The notes: generated from the sequence alone by a model not told the origin. 32,000 nt of DNA from an uncultured Actinomycetes bacterium (GCA_963843975.1 CAWJMG010000003.1:300001-332000); one strand, 5' to 3'; positions 15,719 to 31,106 are shown, numbered from the stretch's first letter. Numbers and translations are program-made.

Positions 15719-18691
15719 TCAGGTGGCGTCGCTCCAGCTCTCGGGCGGGGTTGCGGGCGGCTCCGCGCCGGGCGGGGCTTCGGCCTCGGGTGGTTCGGCT
15801 CCGGAGGACGTCGGTGCCTCGGCCTCAGGCGGTTCGGCTCCGGACGGTGTGGCGCCTTCGGCCCCGGGGGGCGTCGATGGCGTCACCGGCAGGTCGGGAG
15901 CCTCCGGCGTCGGCGTCGGCGGCATCGGGGTCGACGTCGTCTGCGTACCTCGCGGTTCGGCGAGGTCAGCTACGACGACGTCGAAGACGGGGTCGAGGGG
16001 GTAGTCGCTGTGGCCCAGCGGTGGAAGGCGCGGCTCGAGGGCCGACTCGGCGACGACGGCGGGGTCGACGAGGCGCAGGTCGGAGCCGATCTTGTACCAG
16101 CGGTGAGGCACGCCGCGGACCGTCGTGACGCGCGGCTCGGCCGTGCGCGGCCGCGTCGGATCGTCTGCGGCCCAGGCGAATCCGAGCCACTCCGTGGTCT
16201 GCGGCCCCGGCCGGTCGACGCCTGCAGGCCAGGAGAGCGCGGGCGCGCCGAGCGGGTCGGTCCAGCGGTAGACGTTGCGCCAGCGCGACTCGGCCGTGGG
16301 CGGCAGCGGCTCGGAACCCGACGTACGCCGCAGGGCCTGGAGGTAGAGCCACGACATGCGGCCGTAGCCGAAGTACGTCGGGAACATGCGGCCGTAGAGG
16401 AACTGCAGCTGCGAGCCGTACGTGACGAGCGACAGCCGCGGCAGGACCGACCGGGCGCGCGCCGGATGCAGCCACGGGAGCCCGGGGGAGTCGAAGACCG
16501 GTGCCGCCGCGGCGACCGGACCATCGTCGGCGGCGGCGGCCTCGGTACGGCTCACCGGGGGATCGGCGCTGGGCCAGCCCAGGTAGTCGAGGACGGCGAT
16601 CGCGCCGACGCTGATGAGCGAGCCCTGGCTGTGCCCCGACACCACCACGGCGCGGGCGCCGAGACCGCCGACGTCGCGCGGCTCGGCGAGCTGCACGGCA
16701 CGGGTCGCCACGCCCAGCACCGCGCGTCCGCCGTACGGCGGTGGGCAGAGGGGATGGGCGTCGCGCGGCCAGAACGACAGGACGTCCCAGATGATGCCGA
16801 CGGTGCGGCGCTTCTCGGGGTCGCGCAGCGTCGTGAGGCCGAGCCCGATGAGCGCCGCGGCGACGGCCGAGACGACCGCGACGCCGAAGGTGAAGAGCGC
16901 GCTCGAGGTGACGGCAGTGACGCCCGACGACACCGTGCCGCCGAGCACGGTGGGCCGCAGGTTGCCGAGCGACGCGATCGAGGCGAGCACCAGCGCGAGG
17001 CCGCTGACCGCGGCGAGGAAGCCGATCACGCGGTGGTAGCGGGTGCGCGACTCCGCGATGAACCAGCGCGTGAGCACAGCGCGCCGCCCGCGCTGCAGGT
17101 CGTCGGCGCCACCACCGGCGACGGGGTCGGGCGGGTAGTCCTCGGCGAGCAGCGCGGTGTACGGGCCGTCGGCGTCCTGGCCCAGCAGCAGCCGGAGCGA
17201 GAGCCCGACGAGGGCGAGGGGCACGAGGTACCAGAGGTCGCGGAGGTCGACCGTCGTACGCCGGTCCTGCACGAACAGCACCGCGGCCGCGCCGATCGCG
17301 ACGAACCACGGCCACTTCGCGAGCGGCCGCTCGAGCGCAGCGCCGGCGAGCGGCACGATCGACGCCGCGAGCAGCAGCGCGGCGCCTCCCCAGATCGCGG
17401 CCGAGAAGCCGAAGATCGTGGGCAGCCGTCCGTTGCCGATCACGCTGCTCGTCCAGAACACCAGCACGGTCGAGAGCCCGAACGCGAGGGCGACAGCGAC
17501 CACGGTGAGCAGCCACGGCCCCCACCCGCGCCAGAACGGCCGGAACGCAGGCGGCACAAGGGGATACGACGGATCGGTTGCGTCTCCCTTGAGCAGTCGG
17601 TCGGCCACGGGACCCTGGCGCTGCTGCCACGTGGTGATCGCCAGGGCGACGAGCAGCAGCGACACGATGACCGCGAGCCAGCTGATGGTGATCTCGGGCG
17701 GGCCGGCCGGTGCATCGGCGGCGACTGCATCGCCGAGGGGGCTGCCCGCGCCGTGGTCCTGCGCCCACGCCGCGAGGAACACCGACGCCGCTGTCACCGG
17801 CACCGCGGCGATCCGTGCACGAGCCACCCGGTCCGACAGCCGCACGGTGTCGAGCGACGACGACTCCACGCGCCGCGAGCGCGACGGCTCCAGGGCGACG
17901 AGCCACACGCCGTACAGGACCACGACCGCGTTGACCGCGACGAGCACCGACCACGCGATCGGCGCGGCAACTGCAGCGTCGGCGTCGAACGGCGCAACTG
18001 TCGCGAGCGCGAGCAGGCCGAAGAGGCCGAGCGAGGCGACCACGTGCGCGGCGCGCAGCCGGGACGCGTTCGGCGACCCGCTCCAGAAGCCGACGTCGTC
18101 GAACGAGCCGTAAGGCGTCCGCCACGGCACCATGCCGCCGGCCGGATCGTGCGTGAACACCTGCCGCCCGAACCACCACACGAGTGTCACGATCACGGCG
18201 GCGGGAATCGCGCCGAGCAGCACGAAGTACCCGCCGCCCTCGGGGTACCAGTCGAAGCGCGGTGCGCCGATCGTCCAGCCGACGAAGCACGCCGTGGCGA
18301 CGAGCAGCAGCGTGAGGCCGAGGCCGAGCAGGCGCAGCACCGCGGTGGCGGCCTGGTCGCGGCGGCGTACGTCGCTCTGCTGGTGGGGGAGCAGCATCGT
18401 GAAGCGCGCGAGGTTGAGCAGCGCGAACGGCACAAGCAGGAGCCACAGCGCCCGGGTGGCCGACCCCGATGTGAGCCGCCCCCAGTGGAACGCCTCGACG
18501 ATGCGGCTGCGCCCGTACGTCGCCTCCACCACCGGAGTCGTACGGCGGAAGATGCGCGCGGCCTCGTCGCCCGCGACCTGGGTTGGGTACGGGTCGCCGA
18601 GCACGCTCTCGGGCTTGGTGCCGCTCACCCCGTGCACGCGCAGCTCGACCACCTGGTCGAGCGTGCCGTCGCCCTCAGCCCCTGACCCCAT
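15719..18691 (-). CDS. large polytopic membrane protein with split alpha/beta-hydrolase (lipase-like) motifs and a Pro/Glu/Ala-rich C-terminal tail
   Basis: - N-terminus: 'VVELRVHGVSGT', a beta-strand plus HG oxyanion-type motif.
- Then about 13 hydrophobic helices, e.g. 'ALWLLLVPFALLNLARF', 'LLGLGLTLLLVATACFVGW', 'ISWLAVIVSLLLVALAITTW'.
- Then 'FWPRDAHPLCPPPYGGR...AVVVSGHSQGSLISV' (GxSxG nucleophile elbow), 'YRWTDPLG' and 'PPLGHSDYP' (candidate Asp and His).
- Tail with a 13-aa tandem repeat, 'AEPPEAEAPTSSG / AEPPEAEAPPG'.
I chose the ATG at 18691 (MGSGAEGDG). The start is uncertain, and the track ORF extends to 18784. Confidence 0.7.
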   Translation of the reverse strand: MGSGAEGDGTLDQVVELRVHGVSGTKPESVLGDPYPTQVAGDEAARIFRRTTPVVEATYGRSRIVEAFHWGRLTSGSATRALWLLLVPFALLNLARFTMLLPHQQSDVRRRDQAATAVLRLLGLGLTLLLVATACFVGWTIGAPRFDWYPEGGGYFVLLGAIPAAVIVTLVWWFGRQVFTHDPAGGMVPWRTPYGSFDDVGFWSGSPNASRLRAAHVVASLGLFGLLALATVAPFDADAAVAAPIAWSVLVAVNAVVVLYGVWLVALEPSRSRRVESSSLDTVRLSDRVARARIAAVPVTAASVFLAAWAQDHGAGSPLGDAVAADAPAGPPEITISWLAVIVSLLLVALAITTWQQRQGPVADRLLKGDATDPSYPLVPPAFRPFWRGWGPWLLTVVAVALAFGLSTVLVFWTSSVIGNGRLPTIFGFSAAIWGGAALLLAASIVPLAGAALERPLAKWPWFVAIGAAAVLFVQDRRTTVDLRDLWYLVPLALVGLSLRLLLGQDADGPYTALLAEDYPPDPVAGGGADDLQRGRRAVLTRWFIAESRTRYHRVIGFLAAVSGLALVLASIASLGNLRPTVLGGTVSSGVTAVTSSALFTFGVAVVSAVAAALIGLGLTTLRDPEKRRTVGIIWDVLSFWPRDAHPLCPPPYGGRAVLGVATRAVQLAEPRDVGGLGARAVVVSGHSQGSLISVGAIAVLDYLGWPSADPPVSRTEAAAADDGPVAAAAPVFDSPGLPWLHPARARSVLPRLSLVTYGSQLQFLYGRMFPTYFGYGRMSWLYLQALRRTSGSEPLPPTAESRWRNVYRWTDPLGAPALSWPAGVDRPGPQTTEWLGFAWAADDPTRPRTAEPRVTTVRGVPHRWYKIGSDLRLVDPAVVAESALEPRLPPLGHSDYPLDPVFDVVVADLAEPRGTQTTSTPMPPTPTPEAPDLPVTPSTPPGAEGATPSGAEPPEAEAPTSSGAEPPEAEAPPGAEPPATPPESWSDAT

Positions 18692-18732
18692 GCGCCGATC
18701 GTGCCCCTCGCCACCCACCCTGACCAGAGCCG

Positions 18733-18797
18733 AAAGGGTCCGCTCTGGATGCGTGAGAGGAACGAAGACGTGCCTCCCAGGCATCCAGAGCGGGTCC
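18733..18797 (-). terminator. long stem-loop directly after the flavoprotein-reductase stop, a candidate intrinsic terminator or attenuator
   Basis: The arms GGGTCCGCTCTGGATGC (18736..18752) and GCATCCAGAGCGGGTCC (18781..18797) pair over 13 perfect bp, extending to 17 with two G-U pairs. On the minus-strand RNA the stem is followed by UUUCGG. It lies between the stop at 18797 and the next start at 18691. Confidence 0.5.
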
Positions 18798-22613: not shown

Positions 22614-22912
22614 GAGGCCATCATCGTCCAGCCGCTGCTAGTGGAGGCCGAGGGCACGGCGAGGGTGGCCGAACCGAGACCGGGCGGACGTCGCGCGAGC
22701 CCGTGCCCTGCCCGGTGTCGGTCACGAGTCGTACGAGTAGCGGGGGGCGCGCCGCGTGGGCGTCGCCGGGACTGTGTCATGACCGGTGTCGACGGGCCGG
22801 CGTACGAGTCGCGGGGTGCGTGTGCCCGGGTGAGGATGGTCGCGCGGTCGCTCCGCGACCCGCCGGGTGCCCGGACCTGGATCCGACGACCACTGCAAGG
22901 AGCACCGACGCC

Positions 22913-23506
22913 ATGCGCTCCCGACGTCCCCTCGCCCTGGCCGCCACGGCCCTCGCCCTCGCTGCCGCCCTCAGCGGCTGCAGCAGCCACTCCTCAGGGA
23001 CAGCGTCCGGTGATGCAACCGCGGCGATCGTGGCGGGGCAGGCCGGCGACATCGCCTTCGCCCAGCTGATGATCCCGCACCACGAGCAGGCCGTGGAGAT
23101 GGCCGATCTCGCCCTCGAACGCCAGACCTCGCCCGAGGTCAAGGCGCTCGCCGAGCAGATCAAGGGTGCTCAGGATCCCGAGATCGAGCAGATGTCCGGC
23201 TGGCTCACGACCTGGGGCGCACCCCGCGAGATGCCGTCCGACATGGACCACGGCTCCGACCACGGCGGCATGTCCATGGCCGGGATGATGAGTGACGAGG
23301 ACATGGCTGCCCTCGCTGCCGCGTCGGGAGCCGAGTTCGACCAGAAGTGGCTCACCCTGATGATCGCGCATCACGAGGGCGCGCTCACGATGGCGCAGCA
23401 GGTGCTCGGCACGACGTCCGACACCCAGGTGCGCACCCTCGCCGAGGCCATCGTCGCCGGCCAGAAGGCCGAGATCGCCGACATGAAGGCCCTCCTCGCC
23501 CCCTGA
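22913..23506 (+). CDS. DUF305 family lipoprotein (metal/copper-stress associated family)
   Basis: Lipobox 'AAALSGC'. Duplicated 'MIPHHEQAVEMA' and 'MIAHHEGALTMA' DUF305 His motifs, with a His/Met-rich segment 'DMDHGSDHGGMSMAGMM'. AAGGAG upstream of the ATG at 22913. Confidence 0.85.
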   Translation: MRSRRPLALAATALALAAALSGCSSHSSGTASGDATAAIVAGQAGDIAFAQLMIPHHEQAVEMADLALERQTSPEVKALAEQIKGAQDPEIEQMSGWLTTWGAPREMPSDMDHGSDHGGMSMAGMMSDEDMAALAAASGAEFDQKWLTLMIAHHEGALTMAQQVLGTTSDTQVRTLAEAIVAGQKAEIADMKALLAP

Positions 23507-23521
23507 CGACTGTTCGCCGAC

Positions 23522-23570
23522 GTAGCTGCGAGGCGACGCATCGCAGAGAGAGCGCGTTCGCCGTACAGCT
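23522..23570. repeat. interspersed intergenic repeat, copy B (runs into the apbE stop codon)
   Basis: GTAGCTGCGAGGCGACGCATCGCAGAGAGAGCGCGTTCGCCGTACAGCT. The internal dyad GGCGACGC...GCGTTCGCC lies between the convergent DUF305 and apbE genes. Confidence 0.6.
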
Positions 23571-24369
23571 AGGCGAAGGCGGGACCGAAGAACTCGGCTT
23601 GTCCGTCCTTGACGAGGTAGACGGACCACTCGGGCAGGCCGACGAACCAGCGGTTGCAGGTGGGGCCCTCGACCAGGCACGCCGTGGCGAGCGCATCGGC
23701 CAGGCCCGCATCCGGACCGACGACGGTCGCGCTGTCGTAGTGGACGCCGAAGTCGCCGGTCACGGTGTTGGCGATGTGCGAGCCGCGCTCGTAGAGGCCG
23801 CTCGTCGCGATCGCCCAGCCGTCCGGCACCGACACCGCACGGATGACCGACTGCGTGTCGTAGGGGTTCGTGATCCCGACCGTCCAGTCCTCGCCCGGAG
23901 CCTGGAGGCCGCGGCAGGCGATGTCGCCCGACGCGTTGACGCACACGTTCGAGACACCGGCCGCCACGATCTGGTCGGCCACCACACCTGCGGCCCAGCC
24001 CTTCACGTAGCCGCTCGGGTCCACGCCGCCGCGCACAGCCCAGGGGTCGAACACGCCGTCGGTCAGATCGCGAGCGCCGGCGCAGGCGGCAAGCACCGAC
24101 CGCACGACCGACGGGAGCCGGAACTCCTCCATCAACCCGTTGCGGTACATGGTGATCGGGGTGTCGGCACGGTACGTCGAGAACCACGCGTCGACCTGGT
24201 GCAGGTATGCCGCGGCCGAGGCCACGATCGCGTCGACGTCGGACGGAAGCGAGGGCGAACGGAGGTCGAAGAGCACGTGCGTGCCCCACACGGGCTCGAC
24301 GTGCAGCTTCTGCTCCCAGCCGCCAGGACCGGCGTACGAGATGAGGCCGTCGGTGCCGAGCCCGGTCAT
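23569..24369 (-). CDS. apbE: ApbE-family FAD:protein FMN transferase, with no signal peptide or lipobox
   Basis: 'VWGTHVLFDL', 'VDAWFSTYRADTPI', 'GVFDPW', 'DPSGYVKGWAAG', 'VCVNASGDI', 'AIATSGLYERG', 'HIANTVTG' and 'DALATACLV' match ApbE conserved blocks. The ATG at 24369 is preceded by CGGAGG. Only about 25 residues precede the first conserved block, and none form a hydrophobic signal. Confidence 0.88.
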   Translation of the reverse strand: MTGLGTDGLISYAGPGGWEQKLHVEPVWGTHVLFDLRSPSLPSDVDAIVASAAAYLHQVDAWFSTYRADTPITMYRNGLMEEFRLPSVVRSVLAACAGARDLTDGVFDPWAVRGGVDPSGYVKGWAAGVVADQIVAAGVSNVCVNASGDIACRGLQAPGEDWTVGITNPYDTQSVIRAVSVPDGWAIATSGLYERGSHIANTVTGDFGVHYDSATVVGPDAGLADALATACLVEGPTCNRWFVGLPEWSVYLVKDGQAEFFGPAFA

Positions 24370-24494
24370 ACGAGCCTCCGAACGAGCGGACCGGAGTACG
24401 ACGTCGGCGCGGCGAAGCCGCACGTGCCCACGTGCGAAGCACGAGCGCGCGGACCGGCGTACGACGCCGGAGCGTCGGTGCCGAGCCCGGTCAT
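24366..24494 (-). CDS. 42-codon leader ORF formed by a duplicated apbE 5' end (translation unproven)
   Basis: ATGACCGGGCTCGGCACCGACG occurs at both 24494..24473 and 24369..24348 (minus strand). The upstream copy opens 'MTGLGTDAPASYAGPRARASHVGTCGFAAPTSYSGPLVRRLV*'. Its TGA overlaps the apbE ATG as ATGA, and its ATG lies 1 nt after the stop of the upstream FMN_bind gene. Confidence 0.35.
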   Translation of the reverse strand: MTGLGTDAPASYAGPRARASHVGTCGFAAPTSYSGPLVRRLV

Positions 24495-24495
24495 G

Positions 24496-25158
24496 TCAGA
24501 TGCCCGCCTTGCTCATCGCCGAGGCGAGGGAGGAGACCCAGGCCTTCGACGTGAGGGTAGCGCCCGACACCGCCGCGACCGACGCGCTGCGAGCGCCGAC
24601 GGTCTCGGACGACAGCTTCGGGATCGAGAACTCCGAGTACGGCGACGACTCGCCGGTCGGGTACTTCGCGGCCCAGGCCTTGGTGATCTTGCCGTCGACG
24701 ACGCGGATTCCGACCTGCACGGTGCCGTAACGGTGGGTGACGGCGCTGCCGACGAAGTCGCCGTTGGGCAGGGACTTGGTCGGGGTCGGCTTCGGTGCGG
24801 GCTTGGGTGCGGCCTTGGTGGGCGTCGGCTTCGGCGCGGCGGTCGTCGGGTCGGCGGCGGGCGCGGCCGGGTCGGCGGCGGCCGTCGTGGCACCGGCCTT
24901 GGTCGGCTTCGCGGAGGCCTTGGCCGTCGAGGACGGCTTCGGCTTCGCGCCCTTGGTCGCGGCCGCGGACGGCGACTCCGACGGCGAGGCGGATTCGCCC
25001 GCAGCCGGGGACTCGTCGGCCGGGGGAGCACCGAGGCCGTCGACCGGGCCGGCTGCCGACGCGAGGTCACCCGCGATGGACACCTGGCCGTCGGAGTACG
25101 ACAGCACGGTGGCGAGGCCTGCGACGGTGCCCACTGTCACCAGCAGTGCTCGTCTCAT
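24496..25158 (-). CDS. membrane-anchored FMN_bind-domain protein with a long Pro/Ala/Lys/Thr-rich linker (NqrC/RnfG-like flavinylation target)
   Basis: N-terminus 'MRRALLVTVGTVAGLATVLSY' (signal-anchor with RR). Then ~110 aa of low complexity (AAPKPTPTKAAPKPAPKPTPTK). C-terminal FMN_bind domain 'FVGSAVTHRYGTVQVGIRVVDGKITKAWA...VAAVSGATLTSKAW' carries the SGAT[LS]T flavinylation motif. Confidence 0.85.
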   Translation of the reverse strand: MRRALLVTVGTVAGLATVLSYSDGQVSIAGDLASAAGPVDGLGAPPADESPAAGESASPSESPSAAATKGAKPKPSSTAKASAKPTKAGATTAAADPAAPAADPTTAAPKPTPTKAAPKPAPKPTPTKSLPNGDFVGSAVTHRYGTVQVGIRVVDGKITKAWAAKYPTGESSPYSEFSIPKLSSETVGARSASVAAVSGATLTSKAWVSSLASAMSKAGI

Positions 25159-25175: not shown

Positions 25176-25220
25176 AAGACCTAGAACGCAAAGACCTAGA
25201 ACGCAAAGACCTAGAACGCG
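25176..25220. repeat. 3 x 15-bp perfect or near-perfect tandem repeat spanning the NOX-like gene stop codon
   Basis: Plus strand: AAGACCTAGAACGCA, AAGACCTAGAACGCA, AAGACCTAGAACGCG. Minus strand: GCG TTC TAG GTC TTT x3, giving three in-frame TAG codons 15 nt apart. The first of these is the stop of the 25211..26824 gene. This is a low-GC island. Confidence 0.9.
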
Positions 25221-26824
25221 AACGCTTCGTGGTGCTGCCGATCGGTCGGCACTCCGGCGTCCTCCGCCGCCTCGAGCACCTTCTCCGTGAACCCGTCAGG
25301 TCCACAGACGTACACGTCGCAGTCGGCGAGGTCCGGGATCATCTCCAGGATCACGTCGGTGCGCAGCCGCGCCTGGCGCCGAGAACCCTCGAGGTACCAG
25401 AGGCGGAACCCGCGCGACATCGCGAGCTCCTCCATCTCCGCGCGCAGCGGCGCGGAGTCGAGCGAGTGCACGCGGAAGACGACGTCGACGTCGGCGCCCT
25501 CGGGCAGGTCCTCGAGCATCGCGCGCACCGGCGTGATGCCGACGCCGGCCGCGAACGCCGCGATCCGGTTGCTGTGCCGCTGCCCGGCGGTGAAGACGCC
25601 GTACGGGCCCTCGGCCCACACCCGGGTGCCGGGCTTGAGCCGCCAGATCAGCTCGCGCGACTGGTCGCCGAGGTCCTTGACCGTGACGCGGAGGAAGGAC
25701 GAGTTCGGGGACGCCGACAGCGAGTACGGGTGCGCCTGCCACCACCAGTGCCGCGTGAGGAAGCGCCACTGGAAGAACTGGCCGCCGCGCGCCTTGAGCA
25801 GGTCGAGGTCGCGGCCGGAGATGTAGATCGACACGACGTCCGGCGTCTCCCGGACGACGGCGGCGACGCGCAGGTCGTGCTTGATCGACGTCGAGACCGG
25901 GGCGATGAAGCGCGAGCCGATGATGATCGCAGCGACCAGCACGTAGAGGCCGATCCAGAACCACTTCTGCATGGGGTGCTTGGCGAACATCGAGCCGAGC
26001 TCGATCTGGTGGCCGAAGGCGAGCGCGACGGCGACGTAGAAGTAGAGGTGCGCCACCCACCAGGTCTCATACTTCATCCGCTGGCGGATCTTGCGGTACG
26101 ACATCACACCGAGGCCCATCATGAGCACGAACGCGGTCGTCGCGGGGACCATCCACGGCGAGTGCGCCACGATGTTCCAGAACTGCTCGAGCACACCGGA
26201 TTCCGCGGCCTGCGCGTAGCCGATCGTCGTCAGCACCATGTGCGCGAGGATCAGGAGCAGGGAGTACGGCGCGACCTGACGGTGCAGCCACACGAGCTTG
26301 TCGTGGCCGACCTCGCGCTCCACCCACGGAACGCGCGCGACGAGCACGAGCAGCACGAGGCAGAGGTACGTGCCCGCCATCGCCGTGATCGAGCCCAGCG
26401 CCGTCATCGGTCCGCCGAGGTACTGCCAGGTCGCGGGCGCGTCCCCGACGGCGAAGGCCGTGGTGATGCCGAGGCCGATGCCCGCGATCAGCACCGCGAT
26501 GTCGCCACGGCGGGTCGAGGTGCCACGAGCATGGATGCCGCTCTCGACCGGGATCGGGTACGTGACGGGAGCCATGGCAGCAGGCGAGGCGGTGCCCAGC
26601 GCGCCCGAGGCGAGCTCGGCGTCGTAGTCGGGCTCGGGGATGAACACCCGCGGTGGGATCACGGCGTCGTGCGCAGGAGCCGGCGGCTCGAGCGGCAGGG
26701 CGGGACCGGTCGGCACGGGCGGCAGCAGCAGGCTGCCGTACGACGCGTCCGCGGGGAGCGGTGCGACGCCGCCGTGCCGGCCGACCGGACCGCCAGGGCT
26801 GAACCTGGTCTGCTCGAGCGTCAT
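25211..26824 (-). CDS. NOX / ferric-reductase-type transmembrane oxidoreductase (bis-heme FRD domain + FAD-binding + NAD(P)H-binding domains)
   Basis: - His pairs with NOX-type spacing: 'LHRQVAPYSLLLILAH' (14 apart) and 'AHLYFYVAVALAFGH' (13 apart).
- FAD motif 'HPYSLS'.
- NAD(P)H motifs 'AFAAGVGITP' and 'VYVCGPDGF'.
- About 110-aa Pro-rich N-terminal extension.
- The ATG at 26824 lies 2 nt after the upstream TAG. Confidence 0.88.
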   Translation of the reverse strand: MTLEQTRFSPGGPVGRHGGVAPLPADASYGSLLLPPVPTGPALPLEPPAPAHDAVIPPRVFIPEPDYDAELASGALGTASPAAMAPVTYPIPVESGIHARGTSTRRGDIAVLIAGIGLGITTAFAVGDAPATWQYLGGPMTALGSITAMAGTYLCLVLLVLVARVPWVEREVGHDKLVWLHRQVAPYSLLLILAHMVLTTIGYAQAAESGVLEQFWNIVAHSPWMVPATTAFVLMMGLGVMSYRKIRQRMKYETWWVAHLYFYVAVALAFGHQIELGSMFAKHPMQKWFWIGLYVLVAAIIIGSRFIAPVSTSIKHDLRVAAVVRETPDVVSIYISGRDLDLLKARGGQFFQWRFLTRHWWWQAHPYSLSASPNSSFLRVTVKDLGDQSRELIWRLKPGTRVWAEGPYGVFTAGQRHSNRIAAFAAGVGITPVRAMLEDLPEGADVDVVFRVHSLDSAPLRAEMEELAMSRGFRLWYLEGSRRQARLRTDVILEMIPDLADCDVYVCGPDGFTEKVLEAAEDAGVPTDRQHHEAFAF

Positions 26825-26826
26825 GA

Positions 26827-29800
26827 CTACAGGCCTGCCTTCGTGAGTGCGGACTGGAGCGAGGTCTTGTACGCGGCGAAGGTGAGGGTCGCGCCCGACA
26901 CCTTCGCGATGTTCACGGACTGCGCCACGACGACCTCGCTGTTGTACTTCGGCAGCGCGGTCGAGTTGATCTGCTGGGTCTCGCTGCCGTCGTTGGTGAG
27001 CAACGTGCCCTTAGCCACCGTGATGACGCCGTTGACGACGGTGAGGGTGACGTTGAGGGTGCCGTGGCCGCTCGAGATCGAGGCCGTGTTGCCCACGAAC
27101 GTCCCGTTGACCAGCGGCAGGCTCGGGGTGCCCGAGACGGTCGACGAGGCGGGCGAGACCGCGGTGCCGGCGACGGCGGTCACGTAGTACGAGTAGCTCG
27201 TGCCGTTCGTCAGCGCGGTGTCGCTGTACGTCGTTCCCGTAGGCGACCCGACGAGCGTGCCGTTGCGGTAGACGCGGTACGACGCCGCACCGGAGACCGC
27301 CGTCCACGACAGCGCGTTGGTCGCGTTGCCCGGCGTGACGGTGAGACCGGTCGGCGCTGCGGGCGTCGGCGTGGCGGTCGCTGCCGTCGACGCTGCGCTC
27401 GCACCGCCGGCGTTCACCGCCACGACGGTGTAGCTGACCGCGGTGCCCGGCGTGAGCCCGGTCTCGACGTACGACGTGGTGGCCGTCGTGGTGAGCAGCG
27501 TCGCGCCGCGGTAGACGCGGTACGACGTCGCGCCCGAGACCGCGGCCCACGCGACCGTGACCTGGTTCGCGCCGGCCGTGGCGGTGACACCGGTCGGCGT
27601 CGCCGGTGCGGGCACCTGCGGCGTCGCGCTGGCCGAGGCCGAGGCCGTCGACTCCGCGCTGTTCTGCTTCACCGCGGTGACGGTCCAGCTGTACGACGTG
27701 CCGTTGGTGAGGCCGGTGTCGGTGTACGACGCGCTGACCACCGAGGCGACGAGGACGCCGCCGCGGTACACGCGATAGCCCGTTGCGCCGGCGGGCGCGG
27801 TCCACGTGAGGGCGACCTGCGTGTTGCCGGCGACGGCGACCAGGCTGGTCGGGGCGGACGGCGCTGCGGCGACCGGAGTGGCCGACAGGGGCGACGACGC
27901 GGCGGACGATGCGGTGCCGTTCACGGCCACGACCGTGAACGCGTACGGCGTGCCGTTGGTGAGGCTGCTGACCGTGGCGCTGGTCGACGAGGGCGAGGCG
28001 ACGAGCACGCCGTCGCGGTAGACCCGGTACGACAGCGCGTGCGCGGACGCCGTCCAGGACAGGGCGATCGAGCCGTCGCCCGGCGTCGCGGCGAGACCCA
28101 CGGGGACGTCGGGCACGATCGGGACCGGCGTCACGTAGACCGACGACGACGCCGCCGACTCCACGCCGCCCACGACCGCGGTGACCCAGAACGTGTAGCT
28201 CGTGCCGTTCGCGAGCGAGGACTCGGTCCACGTGTTGCCCGCGGTCGAGGTCACCAGCACGCCGCCGCGGTAGACGTTGTACGACGACGCGCTGCCGACC
28301 ACGTTCCACGTGAGCGTCGCGATCGTGTCGCCCGGCGTCCCGACGAGACCGGTCGGTGCTCCTGCGGCTGCGGCGACGGGGGAGGACGTGAAGGGGGCCG
28401 ACGCGGCGGACTGCGGCGAGTTCTGCTTCACCGCGGTGACGGTCCAGGTGTACGACTGGCCGTTCACGAGCCCGGTGTCGGCGTACGACGCACCCGCGGC
28501 CGAGCCGACGAACGTGCCGTCGCGGTAGACGCGGTAGCCGGTGGCGCCGCTCGACGGCGTCCACGACAGCGACATGCTCGAGTCGCCGGGCATCGCCGAG
28601 AGGCCGGTCGGGGCCGAGGGTGTCGCGGCGACGGCGCTGGAGGTGACGGTGCTCGACGCCGTCGAGGCCGACGAGTTCTGGCGGTACGCCACGACGTAGT
28701 AGCTGTGGCTCGCGCCGTTCGCCGCGGACAGGTCGGTGTACGACGTCGTCGCGAGCGAGGTGAGCAGCGTGCCGTCGCGGTACACGGCATACGCGTCTGC
28801 ACCTGACGGTGCCGACCACGACAGCGCGATCTGGCCGTCGCCCGGTGTCGCGGCGAGACCGGTGGGTGCGGACGGCGCGGTGGCGACCGGGGTCGTCGAG
28901 GCGGCGCCCGACTGCGCGGACGGCGCCGAGTTCTGCTTCACCGCGGCGACGGTCCAGCTGTACGACGTGCCGTTGGTGAGCCCGGTGTCCGTGTACGCGT
29001 TCGTGGCGGGGGAGCCCACGAGCACTCCGCCGCGGTAGACGCGGTAGCCGGTGGCGCCGCTGACGGCGTTCCACGTGAGGGACGCCGTCGCGCTGCCGGG
29101 CGTGACGGCGAGACCGGTCGGGGCGGCCGGCGTCGCGGCCACGGGAGTGCCGTTGACCGCGGTGGTGCGGGTCGACTCGGCGCTGTTCTGCTTCACCGCG
29201 GCGATGCGGTACGCGTACGACGTGCCGTTGGCGAGGCCGGTGTCGGTGTACGACGGCGTCTCGGGCGAGGCGACGAGCACGTTGTTGCGGTAGACGCGGT
29301 ACGCCGTCGCACCGGCGGGCGCGGTCCACGTGATGCTCAGCTGCGCGTCGCCCACCGAGATCGCGACGCCCGTCGGCATCGATGGCGCGGTGGCGACCGG
29401 GGTCGAGGTCACGGCAGCGCTGGCACCCGAGGCGCGTGAGCCGTTCACCGCGACGACCGTGTAGGAGTACGTCGTGCCGTTCACGACGCCGCTGTCGGCG
29501 TACGTCGCGGCCACGGGCGACGCGACGAGAGCGCCGTCGCGGTAGACGCGGTAGCCCGTCACGCCGGGGACGGCGGTCCACGTGAGCGTGATGCGCGCGT
29601 CGGCGCCGACGGCTGCCAGGCCGGCCGGCGTGCTCGGGATGCCGATGTCCGGCGTCGCAAGCACCTGCGCGGAGATCGCGCCCCAGCCGGCGACGTTCGT
29701 AGCCATCACCGTGTAGGCGTAGGTCGAGCCGTTGGTCACCGCGGTGTCGACGTACGCCGGGCTCGCGACGCGCGTGATCTCGAGGCCGTCGCGGTAGACG

Positions 29801-30354
29801 CGGTAGGCGCTAGCACCGGCGACGGCGGGCCAGCTGAGCGAGACCTGCGTGTCGGCGGGCGCGGCGAGCACGCCGGTGACCTGACCGGGCTTGGCGACGA
29901 ACGGCGCCTGCACGTAGTGCCGCGCGCGGATCGTGGCGGTGAGGGTGTCGACCGTCTTGGTCATCGCGAGCTGCGAGGCGACGATCTCGGCAGCGGCGTC
30001 GAGCTTGGCCTTCTTGGCCTTGTTCCACGCGGCAAGCGCACTGGCGTCGTCGGCCGACCCTGCCGTGGCCTGAGCCGTCACGTAGTCGTCGTACGTCGAG
30101 GCCACGAGCGTGACGGCCGCGGAGTAGGCGGGCAACGAGTCGGTGTAGCGCTGGCGGGCGGCGACGACCGTGGGGTCGGCGTCGACGGCGGCGGTGATCT
30201 CTGCGGTCACCTCGTCGGCGGTCTGGCCCCAGTCGTTGAGGACGTCCTGGCCGGGGGCCGGTGCGGCCACCGCGGGCGTGAGCCCGCCGGCGGTGCCCGC
30301 GAGCGTGCCAAGGGTCGCTGCGACGGCGGCTGCACTCCTGGTCGAGGTACGCAT
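26827..30354 (-). CDS. secreted giant protein: signal peptide + ~115-aa helical module + 11 FN3 domains + C-terminal FMN_bind domain
   Basis: Single 1175-aa ORF with strong GC3 bias.
- N-terminus: 'MRTSTRSAAAVAATLGTLAGTAGGLTPAVAAP'.
- Eleven ~85-aa repeats of the pattern 'PTGL.a.PGd..i.LsW.a.sGAtgYRVYR.G.LV.s....sYtDtGLtNGTsYsYtV.AV'.
- C-terminus: 'FVGNTASISSGHGTLNVTLTVVNGVITVAKG...AKVSGATLTFAAYKTSLQSALTKAGL' (FMN_bind with SGAT motif).
- The ATG overlaps the upstream stop as TGATG. Confidence 0.9.
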   Translation of the reverse strand: MRTSTRSAAAVAATLGTLAGTAGGLTPAVAAPAPGQDVLNDWGQTADEVTAEITAAVDADPTVVAARQRYTDSLPAYSAAVTLVASTYDDYVTAQATAGSADDASALAAWNKAKKAKLDAAAEIVASQLAMTKTVDTLTATIRARHYVQAPFVAKPGQVTGVLAAPADTQVSLSWPAVAGASAYRVYRDGLEITRVASPAYVDTAVTNGSTYAYTVMATNVAGWGAISAQVLATPDIGIPSTPAGLAAVGADARITLTWTAVPGVTGYRVYRDGALVASPVAATYADSGVVNGTTYSYTVVAVNGSRASGASAAVTSTPVATAPSMPTGVAISVGDAQLSITWTAPAGATAYRVYRNNVLVASPETPSYTDTGLANGTSYAYRIAAVKQNSAESTRTTAVNGTPVAATPAAPTGLAVTPGSATASLTWNAVSGATGYRVYRGGVLVGSPATNAYTDTGLTNGTSYSWTVAAVKQNSAPSAQSGAASTTPVATAPSAPTGLAATPGDGQIALSWSAPSGADAYAVYRDGTLLTSLATTSYTDLSAANGASHSYYVVAYRQNSSASTASSTVTSSAVAATPSAPTGLSAMPGDSSMSLSWTPSSGATGYRVYRDGTFVGSAAGASYADTGLVNGQSYTWTVTAVKQNSPQSAASAPFTSSPVAAAAGAPTGLVGTPGDTIATLTWNVVGSASSYNVYRGGVLVTSTAGNTWTESSLANGTSYTFWVTAVVGGVESAASSSVYVTPVPIVPDVPVGLAATPGDGSIALSWTASAHALSYRVYRDGVLVASPSSTSATVSSLTNGTPYAFTVVAVNGTASSAASSPLSATPVAAAPSAPTSLVAVAGNTQVALTWTAPAGATGYRVYRGGVLVASVVSASYTDTGLTNGTSYSWTVTAVKQNSAESTASASASATPQVPAPATPTGVTATAGANQVTVAWAAVSGATSYRVYRGATLLTTTATTSYVETGLTPGTAVSYTVVAVNAGGASAASTAATATPTPAAPTGLTVTPGNATNALSWTAVSGAASYRVYRNGTLVGSPTGTTYSDTALTNGTSYSYYVTAVAGTAVSPASSTVSGTPSLPLVNGTFVGNTASISSGHGTLNVTLTVVNGVITVAKGTLLTNDGSETQQINSTALPKYNSEVVVAQSVNIAKVSGATLTFAAYKTSLQSALTKAGL
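27100..29890 (-). repeat. array of 11 FN3-encoding repeats (~255 nt each) inside the giant gene, with some near-identical DNA blocks
   Basis: For example, 27662..27727 versus 28931..28996 differ at 3 of 66 nt (ttctgcttcaccgcgg[t/c]gacggtccagctgtacgacgtgccgttggtgag...). Further copies of ttctgcttcaccgcgg start at 28421 and 29177. There are two repeat subtypes: 'AVKQNS' (repeats 3, 4, 6 and 9, plus the variant 'AYRQNS' in repeat 5) and 'AVNG/AVxG'. Confidence 0.85.
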
Positions 30355-31106
30355 CAGAACTTGTACCCCGCCTTCACGAGCGCGGAGGCGAGGGACTTCG
30401 CGAAGGCCTCGGAGCTGAGGGTCGCGCTCGTGACCGTGGCGACCTTCGCGGTGTCGCCCGCGTTCATCGCCTCGACCAGCAGGGTGGGCAGCGCGATCTC
30501 GTTGTAGTACCGGGAGCTTCCGGTCTGGGTGTACTGCACCGCGGCGACATCGCTGACGTGACCGCCGTACACGGTGATCTGCACCTGCATCGGCTCGAGG
30601 CCGATGCCGCCGATGAAGTACTGCGCGACGTCGCCGGTGTAGGTGCCGTCGATCGGGCGGTAGTGCTTCGCGGTCCAGTAGGTCTTGTACTTCGAGAGCG
30701 TCGCGAGCATGGCGGAGTACGCGGCGTCCGAGGACCTCTTCGCAGCGTCGCGGGCAGCCCTGGTGCTGACGTAGGCCTTCTTGGCCGCAGCGATCTTCGT
30801 CGCCGAGTGCGTCGCCAGCGCCTTCTTGTACGCCGTGTACCGCGTCGCGGTGACCTTGACGAGGTAGAGGTAGCGCGCGTGCTTCGTGGCGTACGTCGCG
30901 CGGGCCGTCTTCACCGCGGATGTCGCCTCGACCTGCGCTTTGATCTCGACCGAGCGCTCGTAGTCGGACTGCCCGTAGTCGTTGTTGACCGCCTGGCCCG
31001 GCTCGGCGGCGGCGAACGCCGGAGCTGTGCCGAGCACAGCGGCGGAGCCCCCCGCGATGACGGTGGCTATCCCCGCGGACGTCATGACTCGACGGCCGAT
31101 ACCCAT
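30354..31106 (-). CDS. secreted FMN_bind-domain protein with a Tat-like signal and the same N-terminal helical module as the giant protein
   Basis: 'MGIGRRVMTSAGIATVIAGGSAAVLGTAPAFAAA' (RR + h-region + AxA). The helical module 'PGQAVNNDYGQSDYERSVEIKAQVEATSAVKTARATY...AKHY' aligns with 'PGQDVLNDWGQTADEVTAEITAAVDADPTVVAARQRY...ARHY' of the giant. C-terminal FMN_bind 'GGIGLEPMQVQITVYGGHVSDVAAV...VATVTSATLSSEAFAKSLASALVKAG' carries the variant motif TSAT instead of SGAT. Confidence 0.8.
   Translation of the reverse strand: MGIGRRVMTSAGIATVIAGGSAAVLGTAPAFAAAEPGQAVNNDYGQSDYERSVEIKAQVEATSAVKTARATYATKHARYLYLVKVTATRYTAYKKALATHSATKIAAAKKAYVSTRAARDAAKRSSDAAYSAMLATLSKYKTYWTAKHYRPIDGTYTGDVAQYFIGGIGLEPMQVQITVYGGHVSDVAAVQYTQTGSSRYYNEIALPTLLVEAMNAGDTAKVATVTSATLSSEAFAKSLASALVKAGYKF

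Follow-up and report, generated by a model that had tools for sequence, protein, structure and literature searches.

Here, we describe a stretch of 32,000 nucleotides (nt) from an uncultured Actinomycetes bacterium (GCA_963843975.1, CAWJMG010000003.1:300001-332000; hereafter, the window), with a G+C content of ~71%, focusing on a gene for a protein of 1175 amino acids (aa), which we call the giant and in which a long array of fibronectin type III (FN3) domains separates a helical module from a terminal domain of the FMN_bind type. Analysis of the giant, its neighbors and its relatives indicates that this is a real, conserved gene, very probably encoding an exported, unanchored accessory flavoprotein of an operon that includes a NOX/MsrQ-like reductase and ApbE. 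The parts of the giant are the following, with positions counted from the first nucleotide of the window:

26827..30354, minus strand: the giant, 1175 aa, 116 kDa; signal, helical hairpin, 11 FN3 domains and C-terminal FMN_bind
30265..30354, minus strand: signal-peptide-like N-terminus (aa 1-30) with two Arg, an Ala/Gly/Thr/Leu h-region and A-V-A preceding A31
29899..30264, minus strand: N-module (aa 31-152) with the motif PGQxVxNDWGQ and helices 46-59, 61-97 and 104-144; ends in HY-x-x-AP
27121..29898, minus strand: eleven FN3 domains (aa 153-1078) with a period of 81-85 aa and short Pro/Ala junctions
28931..28996, no strand assigned: 66-nt block in repeat 4, the partner of 27662..27727
27662..27727, no strand assigned: 66-nt block in repeat 9, 3 differences from the repeat 4 block; candidate short gene-conversion tract
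26830..27120, minus strand: C-terminal FMN_bind-type domain (aa 1079-1175, 97 aa), matched by phmmer to 8P2A
26887..26898, minus strand: predicted flavinylation site S1153-G-A-T1156 in the context A-K-V-S-G-A-T

The giant and its operon

A preliminary description of this DNA had given the giant a signal peptide, a helical N-terminal module, 11 FN3 domains and a single FMN_bind domain at the end, and this layout was recovered by motif scan, Pfam, AlphaFold2, Foldseek and phmmer. Signal-like and transmembrane N-termini were judged by eye and by hydropathy. At the N-terminus of the giant, the Kyte-Doolittle maximum over 19-aa windows is 1.25, and given that no window reaches 1.6, we regard this segment as a signal peptide rather than an anchor; directly after the A-x-A of the giant orthologues, APGQDVLNDWGQ is the conserved mature N-terminus. 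The AlphaFold2 model of the giant, obtained from an alignment of 16 orthologues, has a mean predicted local distance difference test score (pLDDT) of 82, with values below 50 across aa 1-42. The predicted template modeling score is only 0.30 despite the confident domains, which argues against a fixed arrangement of the domains relative to each other. Also as described, the protein carries no LPXTG signal, lipobox or C-terminal anchor: its sequence contains no match to LP.[TSA]G, no transmembrane segment, no hydrophobic segment at the C-terminus (which reads ...SALTKAGL) and not a single Cys, so that a lipobox is precluded.

Five co-oriented genes, overlapping or separated by 2 to ~70 nt, form an operon in which the giant comes second; this context, absent from the preliminary description, is the key to reading the giant. 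The other four genes are:

30354..31106, minus strand: paralogue of the giant, 250 aa; signal-like N-terminus, the same hairpin and FMN_bind joined directly, no FN3
25211..26824, minus strand: NOX/MsrQ-like reductase, 537 aa; Ferric_reduct haem membrane domain, FAD_binding_8 and NAD_binding_1
24496..25158, minus strand: membrane-anchored FMN_bind protein (hereafter, the leash protein), 220 aa; transmembrane segment MRRALLVTVGTVAGLATVLSY, Pro/Ala/Lys-rich leash of ~106 aa and FMN_bind with A-A-V-S-G-A-T
23569..24423, minus strand: ApbE-family FAD:protein FMN transferase, up to 284 aa; Pfam ApbE at 104.9 bits

The reductase, which starts 2 nt past the stop codon of the giant, contains a Ferric_reduct domain scoring 65.9 bits and reaches only 16.8 bits against the NCBIfam MsrQ model, far under the cut-off of 130. 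As a family, proteins with the ferric reductase domain move electrons outward via two haems, and ApbE enzymes attach flavin mononucleotide (FMN) to the Thr of S-G-A-T. The leash protein scores 26.1 bits against Pfam FMN_bind and its leash is apparently disordered. Leashes are 99-147 aa long in the clusters that include a giant, compared with a median of 75 aa in those that do not (p = 5e-4, for loci that are not independent and with no phylogenetic correction). The reductase also has a Pro-rich N-terminal extension of ~100 aa ahead of its first transmembrane helix (about 26525..26824), which aligns in the closest relatives only; the tblastn matches of more distant loci begin at residue ~90-137.

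In the AlphaFold2 model, the N-module of the giant folds into one short and two long antiparallel helices, the latter forming a hairpin (residues ~46-144), and the residues conserved among 49 giants lie at the hairpin base (PGQxVxNDWGQ, E..E, D, R.RY, QLAM and HY..AP). This module matches no Pfam or NCBIfam family, and a Foldseek search of the PDB yields only generic coiled-coil hairpins. The hairpin is shared with the paralogue, the stop codon of which overlaps the ATG of the giant (TGATG) and the orthologues of which are 250 aa long with 100% coverage. In the model of the paralogue (pLDDT 83; hairpin helices 63-99 and 102-147), the conserved N-terminal segment N-D-Y-G-Q forms a beta-bridge beside the conserved H-Y-R-P at the hairpin base, directly before the FMN_bind domain. 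That domain superimposes on 8P2A, the crystal structure of SaFMN3 domain 2 with covalent FMN, with a TM-score of 0.91, a root-mean-square deviation of 1.8 Å and 40% identity in the Foldseek alignment; the paralogue family profile matches the same structure with an E-value of 4e-19. Near 30419..30430, the paralogue reads V-T-S-A-T, against the family consensus V-S-G-A-S, and its close orthologues carry T-T-A-T, T-H-A-T or S-T-A-T, so that the canonical Gly is not kept in this sub-clade.

A search with the reductase as query, retaining one genome per species, produced 68 related loci, which were scanned with hidden Markov models (HMMs) of the domains encoded in the window itself. The closest reductase loci (91% identity) come from metagenome-assembled genomes labelled Candidatus Nanopelagicales. 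In 8 loci (L001, L002, L007-L011 and L051) as well as on an independently annotated contig of 4.05 Mb, all five genes are arranged as in the window, from the paralogue through the giant, the reductase and the leash protein to ApbE; L003 and L066 have the same gene order with a diverged upstream gene, and in L005 the giant is truncated, with the three downstream genes behind it. More distant loci retain only the reductase, the leash protein and ApbE. Beyond the five genes, synteny is lost past the two closest relatives. Members of the family come from abundant actinobacteria of fresh water and soil, most of them uncultured, with annotations as Nanopelagicales, Frankiales or Jatrophihabitans.

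The FN3 array and its counterparts in relatives

The 11 repeats were counted by a scan for an anchor motif spanning the FN3 B- and C-strands and, independently, with an HMM built here; their pairwise identity is 35-66%. That they are FN3 domains, as had been proposed, is borne out by three lines of evidence. Pfam fn3 (PF00041) scores 169.4 bits (E = 2e-50; cut-off, 25), with 7 stretches scoring separately; in the AlphaFold2 model, each repeat is a beta-sandwich of 6-7 strands, mostly with pLDDT of 80-93; and Foldseek matches the model to FN3 chains including 1FNF, 3T1W, titin, fibronectin and GhpA, with E-values from 1e-16 to 8e-36. The invariant positions are the usual core Trp, Tyr and Asn-Gly of FN3. 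Ala, Thr and Ser together make up 47% of the array, and its charge is low. By textbook dimensions, one FN3 domain is ~3.5-4 nm long, so that 11 of them span about 38-45 nm, in agreement with the tens of nanometres claimed previously.

At the DNA level, the repeats have diverged considerably, with 59-74% identity among the five 85-aa repeats compared, and this divergence explains why Tandem Repeats Finder reported only short trivial repeats and no long-period array. The expectation that repeat number varies between strains is not supported: the five closest relatives (75-95% identity), which come from independent assemblies (JGI, NCBI, ENA and Logan), all encode 11 repeats in 1174-1176 aa, or 1147 aa with a later start call, and the number differs only between deeper lineages. 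In the three relatives in which repeat order was checked (P0080, L001 and L002), the order is the same, and for 9 of the 11 repeats the best match in a 75%-identical orthologue is the positional counterpart. The ratio of nonsynonymous to synonymous substitution rates (dN/dS), estimated against the orthologues from L001 and L002, is 0.09-0.50 for every domain of the giant, indicating that all of them are under purifying selection. Stable number, positional orthology and low dN/dS jointly show that the array is old, diverged and under selection. Assembly of repeat arrays is notoriously error-prone, and many database homologues are fragmentary on short contigs; nevertheless, there is practically no chance that the 11 repeats result from collapse or expansion during assembly, because the compared repeats are so dissimilar (the longest near-identical stretch is 66 nt), the five independent assemblies agree in length and repeat count, the contigs are up to 109 kb and 469 kb long, and every repeat is selectively maintained.

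The preliminary description further proposed recent recombination or gene conversion within the gene, citing 3 differences in 66 nt between a block in repeat 9 and a block in repeat 4. The count is exact, and a short conversion tract fits the 66-nt block, albeit weakly, but whole repeats keep their positional orthology. In particular, repeats 4 and 9 are each ~80% identical in DNA to their own counterparts in L001 and L002, compared with ~72-73% between repeats 4 and 9 in all three genomes. Within the block, repeat 9 of this genome differs from repeat 4 sequences at 3-4 positions and from the orthologous repeat 9 of the two relatives at 7 and 7; of the identical residues, 20 of 21 within the block and 17 of 29 elsewhere use the same codon (Fisher p ~0.004, for a block chosen post hoc). 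Thus, a short gene-conversion tract between repeats 4 and 9 is plausible, resting on few sites. The array is also overlain by open reading frames (ORFs), at 27064..28806 on the plus strand and 27011..29581 on the minus strand, along with several plus-strand ORFs of 80-110 aa between 27515 and 29293. These are shadows of repetitive coding sequence with a high G+C content at third codon positions (GC3) and not genes.

The strongest evidence on the role of the array comes from the comparative series. Among the 120 best database hits to the giant, 64 consist of an FN3 array that ends in the same C-terminal domain, with 5 to 13 FN3 domains: 7 domains in 43 proteins, 11 in 13, 13 in 2, 9 in 2, and 5, 6, 8 and 10 in one each. 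Between the same two ends, other relatives have no spacer at all (the paralogue), a Pro/Thr-rich low-complexity linker (L016, P0003 and P0016) or one FN3 domain (L013). A spacer or tether role for the FN3 array fits this series. Judged from these sequence comparisons, the middle of the protein appears to be a spacer, evolvable yet lineage-stable in length, and the two ends appear to be the working parts. A profile search of 1.84 billion representative proteins yielded thousands of FMN_bind-like sequences, with the hairpin module in only ~25 representative clusters; among the 150 representatives listed, FN3 occurs only together with the hairpin module. We also considered a parity rule for the number of FN3 domains (P0076-P0195), which was rejected: odd counts prevail but 6, 8 and 10 occur, and the bias probably reflects inheritance, although repeat pairs may also have been duplicated.

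Two sister forms deserve description in their own right. In one (L016 12852-13838, L017 and L019; P0003, P0014 and P0016), TPTPTD repeats replace FN3, and in L016, L017 and L019 the gene sits downstream of apbE. The other is a second lineage combining 1 or 9 FN3 domains with FMN_bind (L013 12843-14039 and 15475-16452; L014 12689-15985; L018 2444-5746), which is also located downstream of apbE and has a diverged helical N-module devoid of NDWGQ and a Cys-containing head (GCWATYPT).

The predicted flavin head and the proposed mechanism

In a phmmer search of the PDB, the C-terminal domain of the giant (hereafter, the head) matches SaFMN3 domain 2 (8P2A) with an E-value of 5.9e-12 over domain aa 12-95, the alignment running through VSGAT. 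The head is the best-conserved domain of the giant: its aa identity to the orthologue from L001 is 93%, and to that from L002, 89%. Within the predicted site, S1153 and G1154 are invariant across the 16 orthologues, whose conservation at A1155 and T1156 is 90% or higher. Applying the motif rules for flavinylation sites (PMC12052999), we predict that the head bears covalent FMN on T1156. There is only one FMN_bind domain, always C-terminal, in the giant and in all 64 homologues. Precomputed Pfam annotation assigns PF04205 to just 1 (P0098) of the 120 best database hits to the giant. The net charge of the head is +1 to +5 in giants and -8 to 0 in paralogues (~50 sequences each); the opposite charges are compatible with transient head-to-head encounters, and no more.

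The suggestion that the rod cannot be a wire holds: with one redox centre on a stalk of about 38-45 nm, far past the tunnelling distance, electrons would have to travel by movement of the head. Our tentative proposal, which we regard as possible rather than probable but as the most economical model, is that the giant is a docked, semi-flexible flavin tether. Electrons would leave cytoplasmic NAD(P)H, cross the membrane reductase by way of its FAD and two haems and, on the outside, be passed to tethered flavin heads, namely, those of the leash protein and the stalk-less paralogue. The hairpin module would dock the giant non-covalently to a partner, and the semi-flexible chain of ~40 nm would let its single head sweep between these donors and acceptors located within the cell wall or outside it, with Fe(III) complexes, humic quinones and O2 as candidate acceptors. 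Electrons would pass by collision of flavin heads and not through the stalk. The more specific notion that a single covalent flavin on an FN3 stalk of 25-45 nm, set in each lineage at 7, 9, 11 or 13 domains, mechanically ferries electrons across the envelope, from the NOX-like exporter and its leash-borne flavodomains to acceptors outside the wall, is, at this stage, doubtful.

Alternatively, the polarity might be reversed, with the flavin head docked at the reductase and the stalk holding the hairpin outward as a binding or adhesion end, in which case the flavin would act as a redox-dependent anchor or switch. AlphaFold-multimer models do place an FMN_bind protein on the MsrQ-like cytochrome (PMC10979944); the charged and aromatic cluster at the hairpin base and the mature N-terminus, the most conserved parts of the module, could be a ligand site; and helical hairpins such as the colicin R-domains, which are among the Foldseek matches, serve in docking. 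We nevertheless consider this scenario unlikely, given that the operon already encodes a dedicated membrane-anchored FMN_bind partner, that no ligand-binding family matches the hairpin, and that the paralogue, where hairpin and FMN_bind adjoin, implies that the hairpin need not be far from the flavin.

Quite unlikely, in our assessment, is a released carrier, that is, an undocked soluble flavoprotein in which the FN3 chain adds size, solubility or protease resistance and keeps the flavin in the zone of the wall or capsule. The lack of any sort of anchor in the giant, the low-charge, Ala/Thr/Ser-rich stalk and the proposal that covalent flavinylation stops the loss of flavin outside the cell (PMC11334425) would all fit. 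However, such a carrier leaves unexplained the strongly conserved N-module common to the giant and the paralogue; bulk retention does not predict stable numbers of 7 or 11 repeats within lineages; and a planktonic cell would lose a free protein of 116 kDa.

It is improbable that the FN3 chain itself binds a polymer or mineral (polysaccharide, cell wall or metal oxide), keeping the flavin on a substrate, for example for mineral reduction or as an electron source for oxidative enzymes that act on polysaccharides. Similarity to the repeats is seen in the FN3 linkers that glycoside hydrolases of actinobacteria carry (Pfam RGI_lyase and GH85_C), with 317 bits for the NCBIfam exoglucanase CbhB, far below the cut-off of 1950, but this similarity does not go beyond the domain itself. 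No carbohydrate-binding module is present, and neither the operon nor the scanned neighbors include a gene for a glycoside hydrolase or lytic polysaccharide monooxygenase; furthermore, replacement of FN3 by the Pro/Thr linker in other lineages points to a spacer rather than a binder.

Several considerations weigh against the docked tether itself. Covalent FMN, localisation and activity are predictions for every member of the family, and the flexibility of the stalk is an assumption carried over from other FN3 chains. No gene for a terminal acceptor reductase or a metal transporter is conserved beside the operon in the related loci. Leash length shows no scaling with FN3 number among the clusters that have a giant, and pairing of acidic with basic hairpins, entertained as a sign of heterodimers, is not general: paralogue hairpins are always basic (median +10), and those of the giants are acidic in the 11-FN3 clade only and mildly basic elsewhere. 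The head scores 19.8 bits against Pfam FMN_bind (PF04205), below the cut-off of 22, and the Asp of the canonical D-x-x-[ST]-G-A-[ST] motif is replaced by Ala in all three FMN_bind proteins of the operon; this Asp has been called strictly conserved, yet an Asp-to-Ala substitution had only a minor effect in one test protein (PMC12052999). Finally, no signal peptide or transmembrane segment is present in ApbE, here or in ~20 orthologous loci. The stop-bounded frame (23569..24495) allows a maximum of 308 aa with no hydrophobic N-terminal segment, and the frames of many orthologues are 272-290 aa (e.g., L001 12284-13099 and L069 12630-13448). Because all three presumed substrates bear export-type N-termini, flavinylation outside the cell by such an enzyme is unexplained. 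A twin-arginine motif (RR) is present in 20 of the 41 giant orthologues and absent from this giant (MRTSTRSAAAV).

RR is also found in the paralogue (GRRVMT) and the leash protein (MRRALLV). Twin-arginine translocation does not readily account for the signal-less ApbE, RR being inconsistent among the giants and missing in this one. One possibility, linked to the ferrying of electrons by a stalked flavin, is that this ApbE would modify the heads in the cytoplasm before their export.

The unexplained place of flavinylation is the main reason to keep considering that the giant is no flavoprotein at all: its FMN_bind fold would be degenerate and receive no flavin, and its role in the envelope would be purely structural. 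The sub-threshold Pfam score, the missing Asp and the combination of a seemingly cytoplasmic ApbE with a signal that lacks twin arginines would agree with such a role. It is, however, highly improbable in view of an SGAT motif that is invariant or nearly so within the best-conserved domain, the close homology of the head to a proven covalent flavodomain and the constant linkage of the gene to those for ApbE and the reductase.

The remaining genes scanned around the operon encode an FAD-linked oxidase, a hydrolase, DUF305, RecQ, Pta and an ABC transporter, and look like unrelated metabolism and repair. The DUF305 gene (22703..23506, plus strand; 180 bits; signal-like N-terminus) converges on the ApbE end of the operon and is absent from the hits of the synteny screen of related loci. 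An ORF of 1025 aa (15719..18796, minus strand) is gene-like in its GC3 (0.91) and has a 74%-identical counterpart in L001, with no Pfam family at E <= 0.001. Scans of the sequence for sigma-70 promoters and intrinsic terminators found no sites.

Electron transfer across the thick, insulating monoderm envelope is an open problem, to which the known answers are chains of closely spaced cofactors and diffusible mediators. If true, ferrying by a stalked flavin would add a third route for extracellular electron transfer over long distances to relays with many haems or flavins and to small shuttles that diffuse. The family amounts to a natural experiment, in which the donor machinery and the flavin head are constant and the inert spacer ranges from nothing to ~45 nm, so that the reach of one tethered flavin becomes directly testable. 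Should these actinobacteria reduce iron, humic substances or oxygen outside the cell, this would matter for carbon and metal cycling. Given that stalked heads fall under the Pfam FMN_bind threshold, domain-based surveys are likely to miss them, and the signal-less ApbE raises the question of where flavinylation takes place in actinobacterial 'MsrQ-like' systems.

Comparison with known systems

The operon belongs, by their operational definition, to the 'MsrQ-like' clusters, with Ferric_reduct, ApbE and FMN_bind (the leash protein) in adjacent genes (PMC8238504). The 1797 clusters of this class are found mainly in Actinobacteria, with NAD(P)H as the proposed donor; their function has yet to be characterised, and a subset has been suggested to reduce iron (Méheust et al. 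2021, eLife, PMC8238504). As in these clusters, a haem membrane protein (PF01794) fused to an NAD-binding domain (PF00175) is encoded together with apbE and an FMN_bind gene with a signal or transmembrane segment. By contrast, the clusters were described with no FN3, helical hairpin or stalked flavoprotein (PMC8238504), whereas the present operon encodes three FMN_bind proteins, among which the head of the giant scores under the PF04205 threshold used in that survey. FN3 is unmentioned in PMC8238504 and in its 2024 follow-up, and our search of a literature library gave no relevant paper combining FN3 and flavinylation. Thus, the FN3-stalked flavoprotein seems to be an undescribed accessory of a known but uncharacterised class.

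The likeness to bacterial NOX and MsrQ applies to the neighboring 537-aa reductase, which shares their Ferric_reduct, FAD and NAD architecture, and not to the giant. Listeria PplA is a lipoprotein with two FMN_bind domains that is fed by Ndh2, quinone and EetA/B. PplA/FmnB, named as a characterised extracellular electron transfer system (PMC8238504), resembles the present case in its Gram-positive envelope, in flavinylation of the ApbE type and in having an FMN_bind protein at the surface from which electrons pass outward, but the giant lacks a lipobox, the membrane module of its operon is NOX-like and it has a 40-nm stalk. The FMN_bind domain of NqrC and RnfG also lies outside the membrane and bears FMN through a phosphoester bond to the Thr of S-G-A-T; these proteins are, however, fixed subunits of ion-pumping complexes, and no Nqr or Rnf subunit is encoded in this operon. 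With respect to the stalk, the closest parallels are the bead-on-a-string FN3 chains of titin, fibronectin and the GhpA 'grappling hook', which act as mechanical spacers, although the likeness is at the level of the fold (9-21% identity) and the listed Foldseek matches are not described with a redox cofactor head.

Multi-flavinylated proteins, defined by several FMN_bind domains per polypeptide (PMC8238504, PMC10339131), do not include the giant with its single domain. An extreme form of this other type is P0265, a 1853-aa representative with 14 separate FMN_bind-like stretches, the opposite of a single-flavin stalk. A known counterpart of the head is SaFMN3 (8P2A; PMC10339131), a secreted actinobacterial protein flavinylated by ApbE that has the same FMN_bind fold and VSGAT site; it has a potential of -184 mV, and its reduced form reacts with O2 (PMC10339131). 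SaFMN3, however, carries several flavin domains on flexible loops, possibly forming a multi-step relay, whereas the giant combines one flavin with redox-inert FN3 repeats.

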